The notes below the pieces were generated by a model, which saw only the letters and a program-made list of their open reading frames with translations, had not been told where the DNA came from and searched no databases. This document shows, piece after piece, positions 5,428 to 64,000 of a stretch of DNA of 64,000 nucleotides. Origin of the DNA: Alphaproteobacteria bacterium (GTDB taxonomy: Bacteria; Pseudomonadota; Alphaproteobacteria; Rs-D84). The position numbers and the translations under genes were made by a program. Position 1 is the first letter of the stretch, and each line of letters opens with the position of its first letter. The stretch lies in contig JAVBPX010000004.1 of assembly GCA_031549365.1 (NCBI GenBank), positions 32,001-96,000 on the forward strand, in the 5' to 3' direction.

Positions 5428-6045
5428 TTATGCCCCTGGGTTCATAATATCAATTGATGCTTTGACCATTAAATCTTTTTTAACCACATCAATTCTGTTA
5501 TATAAATCGTCATTTCTCTTTACAAAATATTGATAAAACACAGCGGCTGGGATCGCAACAATTAATCCCAATGCAGTTGTCCCCAAAGCCACGGCAATCC
5601 CAGGCGCAACAACAGCCAGAGATGTTGATTGATTTGCCCCAATGGATGCAAATGTCTGCATAACACCCCAAATTGTTCCAAACAATCCAACAAAAGGCGC
5701 AACAACAGATGCCATAGATAAAAAGTACAAACGATTATCAAATGTTGCAATTAATTTATCTTGCAACATATCCAAACGCGTTTGTAATTGCTCCAAAACA
5801 TTCGACGCATTGGAATTTGCAACACGAACACCATTTGGACGCAATAATTCACGAGCGGTTTTTTCAGCTTCTGCACGGAACATACTCATAACCATTCCAG
5901 TTTTCTTTTCTGCGCCAAATAAACGAAATTTTTCAACAATAATCGCCCAAGTAATAATTGATCCTGCAACTAATAATAATGACGCCAACAACACCATTAA
6001 ATCATCGCCACCAAACAACATCAATAATGAAAAATCAGATTTCAT
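5428..6045 (-). CDS. tolQ: TolQ/ExbB proton channel protein
   Basis: APFVGLFGTIWGVMQTF, SLAVVAPGIAVALGTTALGL; ybgC-tolQ-tolR order. Confidence 0.92.
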   Translation of the reverse strand: MKSDFSLLMLFGGDDLMVLLASLLLVAGSIITWAIIVEKFRLFGAEKKTGMVMSMFRAEAEKTARELLRPNGVRVANSNASNVLEQLQTRLDMLQDKLIATFDNRLYFLSMASVVAPFVGLFGTIWGVMQTFASIGANQSTSLAVVAPGIAVALGTTALGLIVAIPAAVFYQYFVKRNDDLYNRIDVVKKDLMVKASIDIMNPGA

Positions 6046-6056
6046 GTTTTCTCCTT

Positions 6057-6461
6057 CTATTCTGAAATTTTAAAATAAGGCAGCCATTCATCCGGAATTC
6101 GTTTCGGACGATGTGTCTTGCCATCAATAAATACAACGTTTATTTTTAATACTGCACATTCTTCGCCATTAAAAACAAATTTCTGTTCAACTGTAACACG
6201 CGCAGATGTCAAATGTATCGTTTTTGATTCAATGACAAATGTCTGTCCCAACATTAATGGTTTTATATATTTTATATCCAATGAATGAATTACCCAAATC
6301 CCATCATCATGATCCATAAATGATGGCGCACCACGACGTTCAGCATCCAAAAACATTTGCGTACGGGCACGTTCTGCAATTTCAATATACCGGGCGTGAT
6401 AAACAATCCCGCCAGCATCCGTATCGGCATACGCAATTGTAAATTCAAATTTATGCATCAT
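6057..6461 (-). CDS. ybgC: Tol-pal-associated acyl-CoA thioesterase
   Basis: [13 protein letters not shown] hot-dog thioesterase motif; lies between ruvB and tolQ. Confidence 0.9.
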
Positions 6462-7470
6462 TTTCCCCGTTTTTTTTCGGACAAATAATTCCCAAATGAT
6501 CATATCCGCCTGCTGTTACCATGCGACCGCGAGGGGTCCTTTGCAAAAATCCCTGTTGTAATAAATATGGTTCAATCATGTCTTCGATTGTATCAATTGA
6601 TTCGGATAACATGGCCGCCAATGTTTCAATACCGACTGGACCACCAGCATAATGTTTAACAATCGCATTTAAATAGTTACGATCCATTTCATCCAAACCG
6701 CGTGCATCCACAGCCAATTGCTTTAAGGCCGCATTAATTATTTCTGCTGAAATTGTATCTGATTTCATTACCTGGGCAAAATCACGAACTCGTTTTAATA
6801 AACGATTTGCAATACGTGGTGTTCCACGGGATGATACAGCCAAACAACGCGCACCATCATCATCAATTTTAATTCCCAGTATCGCTGCGCTGCGCCTAAT
6901 AATCGTTGCCAATGCGTCGACATCATAAAAATTCAACCGCATGCCAATTCCAAAACGATCACGTAATGGGTTTGATAATAGCCCCGTACGGGTTGTCGCG
7001 CCAATCAATGTAAAAGGAGGCAAATCAATTTTAACAGAACGTGCTGTTGGACCCTCGCCAATCATGATATCCAACTGATAATCTTCCATCGCAGAATACA
7101 ATACTTCCTCGATCGATGTGGATAAACGATGAATTTCATCAATGAATAAAACATCCATCGGTTCCAAATTTGTTAATATCGCAGCTAAATCGCCCTGTTT
7201 TGTTAACATCGGCGCAGAAGTTGATCGAAATCCAACGCCCAACTCGGATGAAACAATATGCGCCAACGTGGTTTTTCCCAACCCCGGTGGGCCATAAAAT
7301 AAAACATGGTCCATTGCTTCACGACGATCACGTGCGGCCGATATAAAAACAGACAAATTATTTTTCATATCATCTTGGCCGATAAAATCACACAACGTTT
7401 TTGGGCGAACAGAAGTCATAGCATCGTCCCGAATCGTTGGATCAATAAAACGCTTGTTTGTATCGTTCAT
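6451..7470 (-). CDS. ruvB: Holliday junction branch migration helicase RuvB
   Basis: [50 protein letters not shown]. Confidence 0.98.
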
Positions 7471-8281: not shown

Positions 8282-9193
8282 ATGAACCGCCTAGTGATAG
8301 CATCAGCATTTATCGGATTAACCATACCGTGCGCATACGCCGTTGTTGGCCAAGATTTAAACCAAGTGTACGTTGCAAACACACCTGTGGCATCATATAT
8401 GGCGGTACCAAACGACCCATATTACGTTCCTGAAACTCAATTCATGCAGAGAACAGATTCTGTAAATTACGACGACAACATTGATTATGTTCGCACACAA
8501 ATGCAAACATCAAATCCTGGCGTTAATTTTGCAAAAAAACCCGTCGTTGTTTGCCGTAGTGCTGGTTGCACACGATTAAATGATCGTATTACCCGCACAT
8601 ATTTATTCAACAGCTTATCCAATTTATTTATGTTGAACGCACATTCACGCATGCATATTTGCGAGGCAGAACCCTTTACCCGCGCATGCTTGCAATCGGG
8701 AATTACTTTTCCGGCCCGCGTTGGCGCAGCCGCCGCATTAATCAAGGTTCCATACGCCCAAGTATCCCAGGTTTCACAAACTCCTGGCTTGTCGCGCACA
8801 CAAATTGAATTAACATATTCATTTTTAATCAACGGAATTGAAAACCAATGCAACCAAACCATTGCAGATATCGTAATTCCAAACAACGAACAGGTTTCAT
8901 TATTCAACCGCGATTTCACATGCCGCATGACATCCGACGCCCCCAGCAACGTTTCATTGTTATTAAACATTGATTACATTGATTTGGATTACGGCATTAT
9001 CGGCGGTTATTATTCATTCGGAATGCAGGGCCCAGCCCAAGGCGGCGGCACAGGATACGCATTATTCCGCACCGAATACACTTCAACATCGGGCCAGGTT
9101 AAAAATGCCAAAGGCTTGATATACGACCAAGTATCCGATTACGATAAAACAATTCGCCCTGGCGAATTCCAAGTGGGTCCCCTGGATAAATAA
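8282..9193 (+). CDS. Hypothetical exported Cys-containing protein
   Basis: 303-aa ORF with RBS AAGGAG, signal peptide and 6 mature Cys; stop overlaps the response regulator start. Confidence 0.75.
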   Translation: MNRLVIASAFIGLTIPCAYAVVGQDLNQVYVANTPVASYMAVPNDPYYVPETQFMQRTDSVNYDDNIDYVRTQMQTSNPGVNFAKKPVVVCRSAGCTRLNDRITRTYLFNSLSNLFMLNAHSRMHICEAEPFTRACLQSGITFPARVGAAAALIKVPYAQVSQVSQTPGLSRTQIELTYSFLINGIENQCNQTIADIVIPNNEQVSLFNRDFTCRMTSDAPSNVSLLLNIDYIDLDYGIIGGYYSFGMQGPAQGGGTGYALFRTEYTSTSGQVKNAKGLIYDQVSDYDKTIRPGEFQVGPLDK

Positions 9194-60020: not shown

Positions 60021-60050
60021 ATAAAAACCCCGATTACTCGGGGTTTTTAT
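60021..60050. terminator. Bidirectional terminator (DUF378 / tRNA-Met)
   Basis: ATAAAAACCCCGA-ttac-TCGGGGTTTTTAT. Confidence 0.85.
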
Positions 60051-60129: not shown

Positions 60130-60168
60130 GCTATGAACACATTATCATTCCTGACAACACGGCCTATT

Positions 60169-60200
60169 ATATTGTTTTTGATTTCAAAATCAAGCAAAAA
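60169..60200. repeat. 32-bp direct repeat, left copy (tRNA-Met promoter)
   Basis: ATATTGTTTTTGATTTCAAAATCAAGCAAAAA, identical to 62623-62654; minus strand reads TTGATT-N16-TATAAT. Confidence 0.92.
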
Positions 60201-60202
60201 AT

Positions 60203-60763
60203 CTAAACTTTGGCCAATTTTCTCAGCATCAGCTCTGGTTTTCCCGCATTCAGCTCATCGGACACAGATAACCCCAGAGAATCTATAAAACTTTGTATTT
60301 CTCGTTTCACTCCTTGGACATCAACATCATCCGAAGTAGAATATTCTACTTCTAAGAACAGACCTAAATTATCAACCCGTTCAAATTCAATAACATAATT
60401 TTTGTACTGATATGTTCTCTTCAAATTATTTATAACCAGCAACTCTTCCAAACCCAAAGCATCTATTATGCAAACAACCTCTTTTTCTGACCCAACATCT
60501 GTTTCATATTCATCTGAATACAACCATGTATCTCCATCAAAATGATCATTTTTAAATGTGATTTGCGTTTTTCCTGCTTTTTTCCTCAATCGAAAGCAAG
60601 CATTCAATCTGCCATTTTCACCCGGTTTCAGCCCATCTCTCAATGGGTCAAAATAGTAAACATCCCTTGTCTCTTTGTCCCCAACAAACTCAAAATCCGC
60701 CAATGCTTTTAAAACCCTGTCTTCATCATCAAAAACTTGAACCAAAATTTCAATTTCTTTCAT
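60203..60763 (-). CDS. CYTH-domain protein (class IV adenylate cyclase, CyaB-like)
   Basis: N-terminal EIEIL (ExExK variant), DVYY, FRLRK, ITFK, EYET, KRTY, LGLFLEVE. Confidence 0.85.
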   Translation of the reverse strand: MKEIEILVQVFDDEDRVLKALADFEFVGDKETRDVYYFDPLRDGLKPGENGRLNACFRLRKKAGKTQITFKNDHFDGDTWLYSDEYETDVGSEKEVVCIIDALGLEELLVINNLKRTYQYKNYVIEFERVDNLGLFLEVEYSTSDDVDVQGVKREIQSFIDSLGLSVSDELNAGKPELMLRKLAKV

Positions 60764-60767
60764 TTTC

Positions 60768-62573
60768 TCACCTCATTTTTTGCAAAGCTTTCAAAACGCT
60801 TTCCTTTGTGTCCCACGTAATTCCCATAGACATCCACCAACAAGTTTGATGTTTTTTCAAAACCTCATTCGCCGCGTCTCTCCCAAAAAGATGCCCCATA
60901 ACGTGTACAGCCTCTTCCAGGTTAGAAAACAACAAAGGCACCTTGATGTTGTTTTTATACCAACTAAGATGACTGTTCCTTGGGCTCTTAATTGATTCGG
61001 AGCGCTTTGATGCCCATTCATTAAAACTATCCGAAATTATATCATCCGGAATATACTTATGCCACATTCTATTTAGTTCATCATTAAATCTTTCACTCCA
61101 TCCAATCGTAACAAAAATACCATCTTCAGACAAATTATTATAGACTGCCTCCAATTCTTCTTTACAAGTAACATCATCCGAAATTCTTGAAGGAAATCCA
61201 AACGAGCTAATAATAAACGAAGACTTTTCATCATCCGGCAATTTAAAATTCTTAATCGCCCCCTGAACTAGTTTAATATCATTTATGTATGATTTTTGCC
61301 TATTAATAGTTCTATCTAAAAAGCCCAGCATATCTGGACTATAATCGACGCCATAAAGAGTTCCTGAATAAGAAACTGTATTCATAATTTTTCTAAATGT
61401 TTTTCCAGTACCCGTAGCCAAATCTACTGGATTTACAATTTTAATCCCTTCTTTTTTTATTTTTCTAAAAACAGAATCAAAACAAACATTTTCTACATCT
61501 TCTGCTTCAGAAAAAATATTATAAACACTTGGATCTGCATACCATTTATCACTATTATCTGCAATCAAGCCATTCTCATTAACTCTGCATTTGCTTAAAA
61601 TTTTTCTTTCCGACCTTAAGTGCTCATTTTTAATTTTACTAATAGCTATTGAAGCCTCCGCTATAACGCCCAAATTATCTTCACAGTCTAATAACGACTC
61701 AATTCTATCCAAATTCTTTCTGGAATTTATTCTCGTCAACCCGCGCAAAGACATTTTTCTAATCGTTTTGTTTGCGTCGTCTAGGCCGGACAAAAAAACA
61801 TCCTCGAAAACCCCTTTCGGTTCTTTTGAAATAGCAACATAAATAGCATTTATAATTTCATAATCTTTTGATTCTTTAAGCATTTCGTTAATTCTTTTAA
61901 TAATATCATTATCAAATAATCTCAAATGAGCCAAAAGCCATAACGTATTTAATATAATTTTTTTATCAGAACTAGACATAAATTCTCTTTTTAAAGACGG
62001 ATATATTTTATCCTTAATATCAGCGTTATTCGCACATAACAAAATCGATATCAAATTTCTTTTATTAGATAAATTAGATAATGCAAAGTCCAACTCCATC
62101 GCAGGAAACCTCTTTAGACTTCGTTTTAAATTATTTATAGAACTAGAACCAGTAACTTTTTCCAAAGCAAATGAAGCCAACCACCAAGATTCCGAATTTT
62201 TTGCATAATTTAAAACTTCATACAAAAAATCTGAAATATATACACTCTTAGTATTTAATTCACCAAGCGACCACACCAAGCCAATAGATTCGTACAAATA
62301 TGTACGTTTTTTATCTGGAACTCTTTTAAGCTCTGATATTATATTTTCAGGATTAAAGTGTTGCAAAATGCTACCAATATTCCAATCTGCCGCTTCCGAA
62401 AATTGATAGTTAGTCAAATAGTTAAAAAATAATTCAATATATCTAAGCTCATTTTCTTGCAACCTTCTTGCAATATAAGCCAAAGACTTTTCCGAAAACT
62501 GTCTTTCGGACAATAAAGATAAATCAGATTTCTCAATTGCACTTAAAATTCTATCCAGATGATCATTTTTCAT
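60768..62573 (-). CDS. HEAT/ARM-repeat protein fused to a C-terminal class I SAM-dependent methyltransferase
   Basis: Helical repeats (LVWSLGEL, ASFALEK, TLWLLAHL, LDDANKTIRKMSLRGL); motif I VDLATGTG, GVDYSPDML, FIISSFGF, NLSEDGIFV; start at MKNDH. Confidence 0.8.
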   Translation of the reverse strand: MKNDHLDRILSAIEKSDLSLLSERQFSEKSLAYIARRLQENELRYIELFFNYLTNYQFSEAADWNIGSILQHFNPENIISELKRVPDKKRTYLYESIGLVWSLGELNTKSVYISDFLYEVLNYAKNSESWWLASFALEKVTGSSSINNLKRSLKRFPAMELDFALSNLSNKRNLISILLCANNADIKDKIYPSLKREFMSSSDKKIILNTLWLLAHLRLFDNDIIKRINEMLKESKDYEIINAIYVAISKEPKGVFEDVFLSGLDDANKTIRKMSLRGLTRINSRKNLDRIESLLDCEDNLGVIAEASIAISKIKNEHLRSERKILSKCRVNENGLIADNSDKWYADPSVYNIFSEAEDVENVCFDSVFRKIKKEGIKIVNPVDLATGTGKTFRKIMNTVSYSGTLYGVDYSPDMLGFLDRTINRQKSYINDIKLVQGAIKNFKLPDDEKSSFIISSFGFPSRISDDVTCKEELEAVYNNLSEDGIFVTIGWSERFNDELNRMWHKYIPDDIISDSFNEWASKRSESIKSPRNSHLSWYKNNIKVPLLFSNLEEAVHVMGHLFGRDAANEVLKKHQTCWWMSMGITWDTKESVLKALQKMR

Positions 62574-62622
62574 ATTTTTCTCGCTTAAATAGAACTCTCT
62601 CAACCTCACACGCACAAGTATA

Positions 62623-62654
62623 ATATTGTTTTTGATTTCAAAATCAAGCAAAAA
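62623..62654. repeat. 32-bp direct repeat, right copy (probable island promoter)
   Basis: Identical to 60169-60200; the -10 reads TATTAT here; about 50 bp upstream of the island ATG. Confidence 0.92.
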
Positions 62655-62656
62655 TA

Positions 62657-63352
62657 TCAATATATTAACGATATAATTATTGGAGCAACGATCGCCGTTA
62701 ATATTCCGGACAACACAATGGCCAGGCTGGACATCGCCCCTTCTACCTGTCCCATCTCCATTGCTTTGACTGTCCCAGCCGCATGCGATGCGTTTCCAAT
62801 GGCCAAACCACGTGCTATTGGATTTTTAATCAAAAACACACGACAAACTATATCGCCAATTGATGCACCCAACACACCTGTTATCACAACAGCAGCAACG
62901 GTTAAAGCAACTACTCCTCCCAATCCATTCGTTATTCCAATTGCAATCGCTGTGGTAACTGAAATTGCAGCCAAAGAGCGTACAAAAATATCACCTAGTC
63001 CAAATAACGCACAAACCAACACAACCGAACATACGGACCCAACAACACCGAACAATATTGATATTAAAATCTCTGGCCCATGCTTTCTTAATAACGGCAA
63101 TTGTTTATACATTGGTACCGCAAAACAAACCGTTACCGGCACCAAAAACCAAGTCAAATATTTTGCAGAACTATTATAAACAGAATATGGAATATTAAAC
63201 ATAACCAAAATCGCAATAACTAAAATTGTACCAATAAACAATGGGGTTGTTAAAGGTCCCGGAAATTTTTTATTTAAATAAAGACCGAATAAAAACACCA
63301 TCAGAGTCAACAAAGTCCCAAAATATCCTGAAATCCCCCAGAAAGCCTGCAT
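62657..63352 (-). CDS. lrgB: LrgB/CidB family membrane protein
   Basis: LVPVTVCFAVPMY, SVTTAIAIGI, ARGLAIGNASHAAGT. Confidence 0.92.
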   Translation of the reverse strand: MQAFWGISGYFGTLLTLMVFLFGLYLNKKFPGPLTTPLFIGTILVIAILVMFNIPYSVYNSSAKYLTWFLVPVTVCFAVPMYKQLPLLRKHGPEILISILFGVVGSVCSVVLVCALFGLGDIFVRSLAAISVTTAIAIGITNGLGGVVALTVAAVVITGVLGASIGDIVCRVFLIKNPIARGLAIGNASHAAGTVKAMEMGQVEGAMSSLAIVLSGILTAIVAPIIISLIY

Positions 63353-63856: not shown

Positions 63857-64000
63857 AACATTCAAAATGTGCCAGATGGACGGGTTCTTTTATTTTCGGG
63901 CAGCAAAAACGTTCAGAATTATGTAATTGTAAAGAATTTCCCTGTTTTTCAGACCCGCGGTGTATATAAACATACATAAGGGTTTGAAAAACAGGGGAAC
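63857..64000 (+). repeat. Long-hairpin interspersed element, copy 7 (cut by the window end)
   Basis: ATTCAAAATG left motif; TGTAAAGAA; inner TTCCCTGTTTTTCA / TGAAAAACAGGGGA; apex CCCGCGG-TGTAT-ataaac-ATACA-TAAGGG. Confidence 0.82.

Follow-up and report, generated by a model that had tools for sequence, protein, structure and literature searches.

A 64,000-nt stretch of the genome of an Alphaproteobacteria bacterium (GCA_031549365.1, contig JAVBPX010000004.1, positions 32,001-96,000, forward strand; hereafter the window, whose numbering is used throughout) carries two adjacent genes, encoding a helical-repeat protein fused to an S-adenosylmethionine (SAM) methyltransferase and a CYTH protein, respectively. 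On balance, we favor the interpretation that this pair is a mobile nucleotide-processing module, in which the CYTH protein and the methyltransferase would act in sequence on a nucleotide and thereby edit the nucleotide pool. The combination of a nucleoside triphosphate (NTP) hydrolase with a base-modifying enzyme is a known theme; the pair is an undescribed version of it, most likely acting on nucleotides. Full-text literature searches, with supplements lying outside them, gave no description of the pair. The coding features are as follows.

60768..62573, minus strand: gene 1, ATG at 62573 and stop codon at 60770-60768, encoding a 601-a.a. solenoid/SAM-methyltransferase fusion (P0001)
61569..62573, minus strand: gene 1 a.a. 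1-335, family-specific alpha-solenoid of HEAT/PBS-type repeats
60771..61583, minus strand: gene 1 a.a. 331-601, class I SAM methyltransferase (aromatic extension at the N-terminal end, lid at the C-terminal end)
60203..60763, minus strand: gene 2, ATG at 60763 and stop codon at 60205-60203, encoding a 186-a.a. CYTH protein (triphosphate tunnel metalloenzyme, TTM; P0002)

The stop codon of gene 1 and the ATG of gene 2 are 4 nt apart, the Shine-Dalgarno sequence for gene 2 (GAGGTGA) lies inside the last codons of gene 1, and gene 2 is translationally coupled to gene 1. The alignment of homologues places the start of gene 1 at the ATG, against a 630-a.a. alternative beginning with TTG. A first-pass annotation of this stretch had described two genes only 4 bp apart, with which the open reading frame (ORF) coordinates and translations agree, and the motifs it quoted (VDLATGTG, GVDYSPDML and EIEIL) were all found in the translations.

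Conservation and distribution of the pair

Among 8,000 candidates scored, 212 relatives of gene 1 were found at E <= 1e-3, and of the 120 listed, almost every one has a length of about 600 a.a. and an identity of 39-62%. An alignment-based scan of species-representative genome contigs, for which a single-protein scan had given no match, yielded 31 genome loci. The carriers are gut Alphaproteobacteria, Bacilli, Saccharibacteria and other Patescibacteria, metagenome-assembled genomes labelled Gammaproteobacteria, Chitinophagales, Thermoanaerobaculia and two DPANN archaea. The CYTH gene directly adjoins gene 1 in 27 of the 31 loci; in the four exceptions, the contig breaks off within 100 nt (L022 and L030), a Qng1/Q_salvage gene occupies the CYTH position (L013) or nothing is there (L029). 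Similarly, a CYTH gene follows the methyltransferase in 55 of 67 metagenome loci, and the 12 exceptions include contig edges (L089, L103, L105 and L113), fragments or weak matches (L114 and L115), a convergent NUDIX gene (L101 and L102), a Maf gene directly upstream (L093) and no partner (L104). The total is 98 loci, some metagenome loci being duplicates of genome loci, and the 64 with both genes nearly complete hold 47 distinct gene-1 sequences.

The two proteins show correlated pairwise identities (r = 0.825, 1,128 comparisons of 48 pairs, Mantel 0/999). Since related sequences share both genes, this correlation shows joint inheritance or transfer, not contact. The co-occurrence as an operon across phyla that the first-pass annotation had raised is borne out by these counts and correlated identities. 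In a maximum-likelihood tree, the window sequence groups with those of gut Alphaproteobacteria (100/99); the sister group of this clade is gut Bacilli (100/99), and a Patescibacteria clade with phyla intermixed lies apart from it. The methyltransferase genes of L020 and L021, records labelled Gammaproteobacteria, nest in the Patescibacteria clade, reflecting either gene transfer or mislabelled bins.

Within lineages the pair is rare. In the order of the host, it was found in 4 of 151 sampled genomes, one with an in-frame TGA, and in one Bacilli order in 2 of 151 genomes, one being truncated. No pair was found in IMG/VR viral contigs, GenBank phages or PLSDB plasmids, and PHROGs gave a generic methyltransferase match only. 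Several copies are decaying: the methyltransferase gene of G134 (L003/L045) has an in-frame TGA, L014 has a 321-a.a. truncated gene beside an IstB-like gene, the CYTH gene of L053 is split across two frames, and the copy in G256 is truncated and contains two stops.

Five carrier genomes were checked and measure 0.6-1.2 Mb, and that of the host is 0.91 Mb (97.6% complete). The small size of these genomes therefore indicates that selection retains the pair in organisms that discard nearly all dispensable genes. Organisms with very small genomes are generally held to depend on scavenged nucleotides. The pair is among the few gene units common to gut Alphaproteobacteria, Bacilli, Patescibacteria and DPANN archaea at 40-65% identity.

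Gene 2 resembles triphosphate hydrolases

Gene 2 matches Pfam CYTH with 60.5 bits (gathering cut-off 23.2, a.a. 1-167), with the signature residues K2-E3-x-E5-x-L7, R58-x-R60 and E138-x-E140. It also matches the NCBIfam model TIGR00318, named 'class IV adenylate cyclase', with 80.7 bits (cut-off 57.95), as would be expected if it were a CyaB-type cyclase producing cyclic AMP (cAMP), with the methyltransferase as a regulator or target of cAMP signaling. As described in passages of PMC8233210, however, TIGR00318 also captures archaeal hydrolases, so that the score alone is no proof of cyclase function. According to the same passages of PMC8233210, true class IV cyclases have three distinguishing features: the sequence HFxxxxExExK, in which an HF motif stands four residues ahead of ExExK; a small neutral residue instead of the first Arg of xRxR; and replacement of the second Glu of ExE by Ala. 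The CYTH protein lacks the HF motif, as it starts with MKEIEIL, and in 26 of the 27 sequences aligned the first Glu has just two residues before it. All 27 sequences share R58 and R60 as invariant residues, which align with RLR of SaTTM, and the first Arg of xRxR is thus retained, as is the second Glu of ExE, since E138 and E140 (LEVEY) are likewise invariant. Class IV adenylate cyclase was rejected, as all three cyclase-specific signatures given in those passages failed. In addition, the same part of PMC8233210 describes SaTTM, the solved protein nearest to gene 2, as a triphosphatase that forms no cyclic nucleotides. Compared with the CyaB-type cyclases of Yersinia pestis and Aeromonas hydrophila, gene 2 thus shares the CYTH superfamily and a score above the TIGR00318 cut-off, but differs in having no HF motif and in retaining both the gate-keeper Arg and the second ExE glutamate. 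We give almost no credence to a role in cAMP signaling, and the term 'cyclase-like' in the first-pass annotation finds no support, as the cyclase signatures are absent and those of the hydrolases kept.

The nearest solved structures by sequence are those of archaeal TTMs, namely SaTTM (Saci_0718, 7ns8; E 4e-9) and the Pyrococcus CYTH proteins PH1819 (2een; 1e-6) and 2dc4 (2e-3); like gene 2, they are small single-domain proteins with a basic xRxR and an acidic ExE motif. Unlike SaTTM and PH1819, gene 2 has Leu for the Lys of ExExK and Lys at position 2 (KEIEIL), is coupled to a methyltransferase gene, and has invariants of its own subfamily, namely D34, Y36, W80, S83 and the C-terminal GKPE; E3 and E5 of ExExK are present and conserved. 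The thiamine triphosphatase marker W/YxRxR is absent, its aromatic position being Cys here, Cys, Leu, Phe or Val in the family and a small residue in SaTTM. Judging from these signatures, gene 2 is probably a metal-dependent hydrolase of triphosphates, of the archaeal SaTTM/PH1819 type, rather than an adenylate cyclase, and its automatic name, 'class IV adenylate cyclase', is misleading and needs correction.

The host genome has a second, canonical CYTH protein (174 a.a., EIERKF intact), distinct from gene 2 and encoded on a different contig (L116, G000 contig C10, 1391-1915), downstream of infB and a lipoprotein-like gene; therefore, the CYTH protein of the pair is an extra, specialized copy. 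A lone CYTH gene in the related genome G005 (L037, 1486-2055), whose product is 67% identical to that of gene 2, lies between the ribosomal protein L25 gene and tRNA-Ser(GGA), with no adjoining methyltransferase gene, and may be a remnant or an independent use.

Gene 1 joins a methyltransferase to a helical-repeat arm

The C-terminal part of gene 1 matches Methyltransf_25 in Pfam with 35.3 bits (cut-off 27, a.a. 383-462), as well as Ubie_methyltran, and its motif I, D384-L-A-T-G388-T-G390, is invariant. The domain is further marked by the motifs NENGxIxDxSDKWY (in the N-terminal extension), NPxDxAxGTG, FGFPS, GWxExF, PRNxxLxW and MGHLFG. An AlphaFold2 (AF2) model of gene 1, built from a 71-sequence alignment with high confidence (predicted local distance difference test, pLDDT, 91.7; predicted template modeling score, pTM, 0.83), consists of an all-helical solenoid (a.a. 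1-330), a short low-confidence linker and a Rossmann methyltransferase (a.a. 348-601). Together with the Pfam scores, the model upholds the earlier claim of helical repeats and a class I SAM methyltransferase in one 601-a.a. protein.

The best structural matches are lid-bearing small-molecule methyltransferases, all tied at VIA-align Z 15-17.2: TmtA/GtmA, 1y8c, OxaG/RoqN, Tmt1, HvrF, DhpI, FPP methyltransferases and Coq5/UbiE (170-233 residues aligned, root mean square deviation 3.0-4.3 A, identity 11-20%). The modeled gene 1 product is accordingly a predicted class I SAM methyltransferase of the lid-bearing small-molecule type, the fold match giving the class and not the substrate. TmtA/GtmA, Tmt1, OxaG/RoqN, HvrF, DhpI and Coq5/UbiE have the same Rossmann core and cap domain; gene 1 differs from these small-molecule enzymes in the unique motifs NENGxIxDxSDKWY, FGFPS, PRNC and MGHLFGRDAA and in its 330-a.a. 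solenoid. The ESM Atlas returned only the unnamed cluster of the family itself. A stand-alone methyltransferase was sought among shorter proteins, and all 31 matches proved to be family members of 42-326 a.a., mostly from short contigs and apparently fragments or truncated copies.

These matches bear on another explanation, in which the pair would detoxify a compound other than a nucleotide, with the methyltransferase S- or O-methylating a thiol, metalloid, carboxylate or phosphonate and the CYTH protein serving as an inorganic tri- or polyphosphatase. The top structural matches include the thiol methyltransferases TmtA/GtmA, trans-aconitate methyltransferase, and the phosphonate O-methyltransferases HvrF and DhpI, there are weak matches to arsenite methyltransferase, TehB is among the precomputed Pfam domains of some members, and a VTC domain gene lies near L007. 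However, the matches are tied at Z 15-17 with only the fold in common, and detoxification leaves the fusions and CYTH replacements described below (NADAR and NDT; Maf, NUDIX and Qng1) unexplained, so that we regard it as very unlikely.

The solenoid falls just below the Pfam HEAT_2 cut-off (26.6 bits versus 27.7), and its family profile matches the alphaRep repeat proteins (E 1.7e-19). There are 14 invariant columns in 24 sequences, across domains of life, with D63-W64-N65, S96, G98, W101, W131, K150 and W212 among the invariants, and the solenoid is also modeled with high confidence when folded alone (AF2, a.a. 1-335, pLDDT 91.4). Only generic repeat proteins match its structure, at Z values in the range usual for repeats (YibA, Z 12.6; CpcE/F, Z 10.4; alphaRep; importin-alpha). 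Since the 53 matches at E <= 1e-3 in 1.84 billion cluster representatives have nearly all the same architecture or are fragments of it, the solenoid is, as far as sequence searches tell, specific to this methyltransferase family. A nucleic-acid-binding solenoid is unlikely given its median isoelectric point (pI) of 6.9 (5.7 for the methyltransferase domain; 71 sequences). The invariant D63-W64-N65 and W130-W131 prompted us to consider an AlkD-like glycosylase role, which was unsupported, the matches being generic ARM/HEAT proteins: no AlkD-family chain was among the 50 best of 48,161 or in the Foldseek list, and Pfam DNA_alkylation gave no match at E <= 1.

Three metagenome loci (L109-L111) encode a form lacking the repeats, a 245-258-a.a. 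methyltransferase followed by CYTH. The protein starts at the stretch before the Rossmann core and keeps the invariants of the methyltransferase domain, with only W-Y remaining of NENGxIxDxSDKWY. Because these loci carry the methyltransferase and CYTH without repeats, the solenoid is accessory, and the catalytic core of the system is the methyltransferase together with CYTH. The sensor role that the first-pass annotation proposed for the repeats finds no support. The contigs of L109-L111 contain many small co-directional ORFs, one of them with a NinB/Orf-like phage recombination gene.

Links to nucleotide metabolism

Proteins fused to the pair, or standing in for one of its members, point to nucleotides. 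P0161 is a fusion of NADAR with the solenoid and methyltransferase, and P0182 and P0190 carry nucleoside 2-deoxyribosyltransferase (NDT) in the same position. DUF4406 occurs in L019 as a fusion with the CYTH protein and in L016 as a separate gene just upstream of the pair; in L016, an ORF taken for a second CYTH proved to encode this DUF4406 protein. The CYTH gene is replaced by Qng1/Q_salvage in L013, by Maf, directly upstream, in L093 and by an abutting NUDIX gene in L101. Among the neighbors, NDK adjoins the pair in six loci (L016, L025, L070, L071, L073 and L112), NUDIX genes are nearby in L002, L027 and L077, an adenylate-kinase-like or P-loop kinase gene comes right after CYTH in L049 and L002, L008 has LOG upstream, L007 and L027 have HD domains, and additional CYTH copies are found in L009, L051 and L077. 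Cleavage of N-glycosidic bonds, in nucleotides or in ADP-ribose adducts, is the activity of NDT, LOG, Qng1 and NADAR enzymes; Maf and NUDIX proteins act as nucleotide pyrophosphatases. The link to nucleotide processing or modification suggested by the first-pass annotation fits these fusions and neighbors.

Gene structure, pairing, mobility, family signatures and fusions are established observations; from this context we infer a substrate, an order of reactions and a role for the pair. The CYTH protein would strip the triphosphate of an NTP or dNTP, yielding either a nucleoside monophosphate and pyrophosphate or a nucleoside diphosphate and phosphate, and the methyltransferase would methylate the resulting nucleotide or its base. 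Where fused or adjacent, as in other genomes, an N-glycosidase-type enzyme (NDT, DUF4406, LOG, NADAR or Qng1) would release the base and leave the sugar phosphate, and the solenoid would serve as an auxiliary arm for docking or regulation. Should this chemistry be correct, the pair represents an unstudied route of nucleotide methylation or disposal and an unstudied methyltransferase family. As to the purpose of such editing, we consider a role in sanitizing or tailoring the nucleotides scavenged by organisms with very small genomes somewhat more probable than a function in conflict.

Several points weigh against this nucleotide-pool interpretation. The chemistry of the pair is read from gene context throughout, and the tied structural matches span S-, O-, N- and C-methyltransferases, with no pointer to a nucleotide. 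In the CYTH protein, the Lys of ExExK is replaced by Leu (L7, at least 90% conserved), with a conserved Lys at position 2. No third gene is constant, most neighbors are housekeeping genes (aminoacyl-tRNA synthetases, ribosomal proteins, Mur ligase, FTHFS and PBP), and the NDK adjacencies may trace to only two or three ancestral arrangements. Finally, the rarity within lineages and the cross-domain transfer suit a conflict system or selfish element at least as well as a metabolic role.

Pre-replicative or house-cleaning pathways for nucleotides provide a close parallel, with examples such as T4 dCTPase gp56 and dCMP hydroxymethylase gp42, and the Maf and MazG NTP pyrophosphatases. The T4 gp56/gp42-type pathways likewise combine an NTP pyrophosphatase or triphosphatase with a base-modifying enzyme, NDK or kinase genes being close by, and Maf or NUDIX replaces CYTH in two loci; the differences are that the present pair has a SAM methyltransferase with a helical arm and no constant kinase, and that none was found in the searched phage collections. 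The occurrence of CYTH and MazG in phages is described in a passage of PMC7824862.

Since the CYTH/TTM superfamily includes RNA triphosphatases, as stated in the part of PMC8233210 cited above, modification of RNA 5' ends also has to be weighed: CYTH would be an RNA 5'-triphosphatase, resembling the Cet1 branch, and the methyltransferase would then methylate the 5' phosphate or the first nucleotide, altering stability or recognition. The neighbors include tRNA, aminoacyl-tRNA synthetase, MiaA, MiaB-like, SpoU and RimM genes, the NUDIX neighbors could be RppH-like, and bacterial Hen1 and the rRNA methyltransferases RlmA and Bud23 are among the tied structural matches. Nevertheless, the near-neutral solenoid (median pI 6.9) and the acidic methyltransferase domain (5.7) are atypical of RNA binders, the CYTH protein belongs to the small SaTTM type rather than the Cet1 type, and the fused or substituted proteins (NDT, LOG, Qng1, Maf, NDK and kinases) act on free nucleotides. 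Six kinds of tRNA adjoin the pair, a variety more in line with an insertion site than with a substrate. An RNA 5'-end function therefore appears doubtful.

The pair lies in a cassette between direct repeats

The evidence for mobility comes from the borders of the pair, where the following features are found.

60165..60200, no strand: direct repeat, proximal copy, its first nucleotide 2 nt past the CYTH stop codon
62619..62654, no strand: direct repeat, distal copy, its first nucleotide 2 nt past the lrgB stop codon
60053..60129, minus strand: tRNA-Met(CAT), directly downstream of the gene 2 side of the cassette
60021..60050, minus strand: intrinsic-terminator-like hairpin (13 pairs and a T run), closing the unit after the tRNA
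62657..63352, minus strand: lrgB-like membrane protein gene, resident flank upstream of the insertion, outside the cassette

A 36-nt direct repeat, identical at 35 of 36 positions, brackets both genes exactly, and its 29-nt core occurs at these two sites only in the 911-kb genome. The 2,418 nt between the repeats are made up of the two genes and a 45-nt leader, and the genes upstream of the cassette in the ORF list are lrgB and lrgA. The proximal repeat copy contains a sigma-70-like promoter, TTGATT-16-TATAAT (60193-60166, minus strand), which is presumed to be the original tRNA-Met promoter, and the distal copy contains a promoter-like TTGATT-16-TATTAT (62647-62620, minus strand), which would drive the cassette. 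The simplest reading is an insertion between tRNA-Met and its promoter region with duplication of the promoter: the 2.42-kb cassette would have inserted just downstream of the -10 box, duplicating 36 bp, after which the cassette would be read from one promoter copy and the tRNA from the other. The locus is a clean natural example of a gene cassette landing on a tRNA promoter and duplicating it. No recombinase is encoded inside the 2,418 nt between the repeats; an attC-like structure was not looked at.

The first-pass annotation had missed this repeat, which is stronger evidence for horizontal acquisition than the codon usage on which it had relied. Foreign codon usage itself holds in part: relative to the 54 window ORFs of at least 150 a.a. 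(mean GC 0.394), the methyltransferase gene is AT-rich (GC 0.319, z -2.3; third-position GC 0.286, z -1.8), the CYTH gene less so (GC 0.360, z -1.05), and the codon-usage distance is 1.1-1.6 standard deviations over the mean.

Repeats also flank the pair elsewhere. In the DPANN archaeon locus L026, exact 50-nt repeats with sharp edges lie at 204-253 and 2606-2655. A circular 2.4-kb molecule was considered for L026 and rejected, as neither copy is terminal and there is sharp sequence divergence to either side. In three loci of gut Alphaproteobacteria (L003, L004 and L017), flanking blocks of about 200 nt, 80-90% identical, lie at about 5658-5803 and 8352-8551; they are the duplicated junction of a DUF2924 gene and a large serine recombinase gene, and the repeats split that operon. 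The repeats differ in sequence and length between loci and are therefore target-derived, and none of the repeat-bounded units (window, L026, L003, L004 and L017) contains a recombinase. L002, L003, L004 and L017 have in common an upstream region of about 100 nt with its own consensus promoter, TTGACA-17-TATAAT. This region is missing from the window, where the cassette relies on the captured tRNA promoter.

A tRNA gene lies within about 800 bp of the pair in 5 of the 31 genome loci, as well as in the window, and the varied neighboring tRNAs fit an insertion hot spot. A search for known RNAs, riboswitches included, near the cassette gave the tRNA as the sole match. We rejected the relative G010 as a clean empty site: its lrgA-lrgB genes lie beside a small membrane-protein gene, with no cassette, but there is no tRNA and the orientation differs.

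Comparison with defense systems

These properties could also belong to an anti-phage or other conflict system, in which the helical arm would sense an invader protein and switch on the methyltransferase and CYTH, so that nucleotides are depleted or altered and replication stops. DSR2-type defense proteins combine an enzyme domain (SIR2) with a HEAT-repeat sensor in one chain. Gene 1 similarly joins an enzyme to a HEAT-type solenoid in a single polypeptide, and the design of the pair is analogous to this arrangement and to nucleotide-degrading effectors of the NDT type. The pair is rare and patchy (4/151 and 2/151 genomes), has been transferred across phyla and domains, and forms a discrete cassette between direct repeats, which in 5 of 31 loci and the window is near a tRNA gene (about 800 bp). 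In three Alphaproteobacteria it is part of an element that also encodes a serine recombinase, DUF2924 and a ParB-methylase. L013 adjoins AbiLi (E 1e-94) and AbiLii (E 1e-27), L060 has a TIR-NDT fusion gene (5960-6988, minus strand) convergent with the pair, matching the PADLOC TIR-TM-like model (E 6e-23), L070 has PDC-M05A beside a PemK toxin, and L104 has PDC-M14A. Domains of the types found in the NADAR and NDT fusions are common in conflict systems, according to a passage of PMC7824862.

However, neither protein matched any family in PADLOC-DB 2.0 at E <= 1, which is in keeping with the earlier statement that the pair was not recognized as any named system. Among 140 neighbor proteins scanned, convincing defense genes occurred at only four loci, the other matches being generic ATPases or helicases, and the contexts are mostly housekeeping. 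The pair includes no nuclease, membrane or NADase effector, and a functional-looking variant lacks the solenoid. In addition, the solenoid is highly conserved across domains of life, which is unusual for a protein that tracks fast-evolving phage proteins. Thus, gene 1 differs from DSR2 in having a methyltransferase instead of SIR2 and a highly conserved solenoid that is dispensable in a variant, with no defense-island enrichment among the neighbors scanned. The anti-phage signaling proposed in the first-pass annotation found little backing, given the four loci and the absence of the pair from the phage, viral-contig and plasmid collections searched, and we consider a conflict system possible but unlikely.

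A more specific variant, which we find rather less plausible still, is a recombinase-less, promoter-capturing mobile cassette that passes among ultra-small bacteria and archaea and makes a methylated nucleotide or free methylated base as an antiviral or inter-organism effector or signal, with the solenoid as a trigger or docking arm. If this were true, the pair would define a new class of nucleotide-methylating conflict system, with an undescribed mode of insertion that duplicates 36-200 bp of target promoter DNA.

A palindromic element in the window

Apart from the cassette, the window contains a palindromic element of about 60-90 nt at 63905-63998 (hairpin core at about 63938-63998). It has no Rfam match, folds at -42 kcal/mol (z -6.7) and is REP- or MITE-like, with eight more partial copies on other contigs and elsewhere on the same contig.

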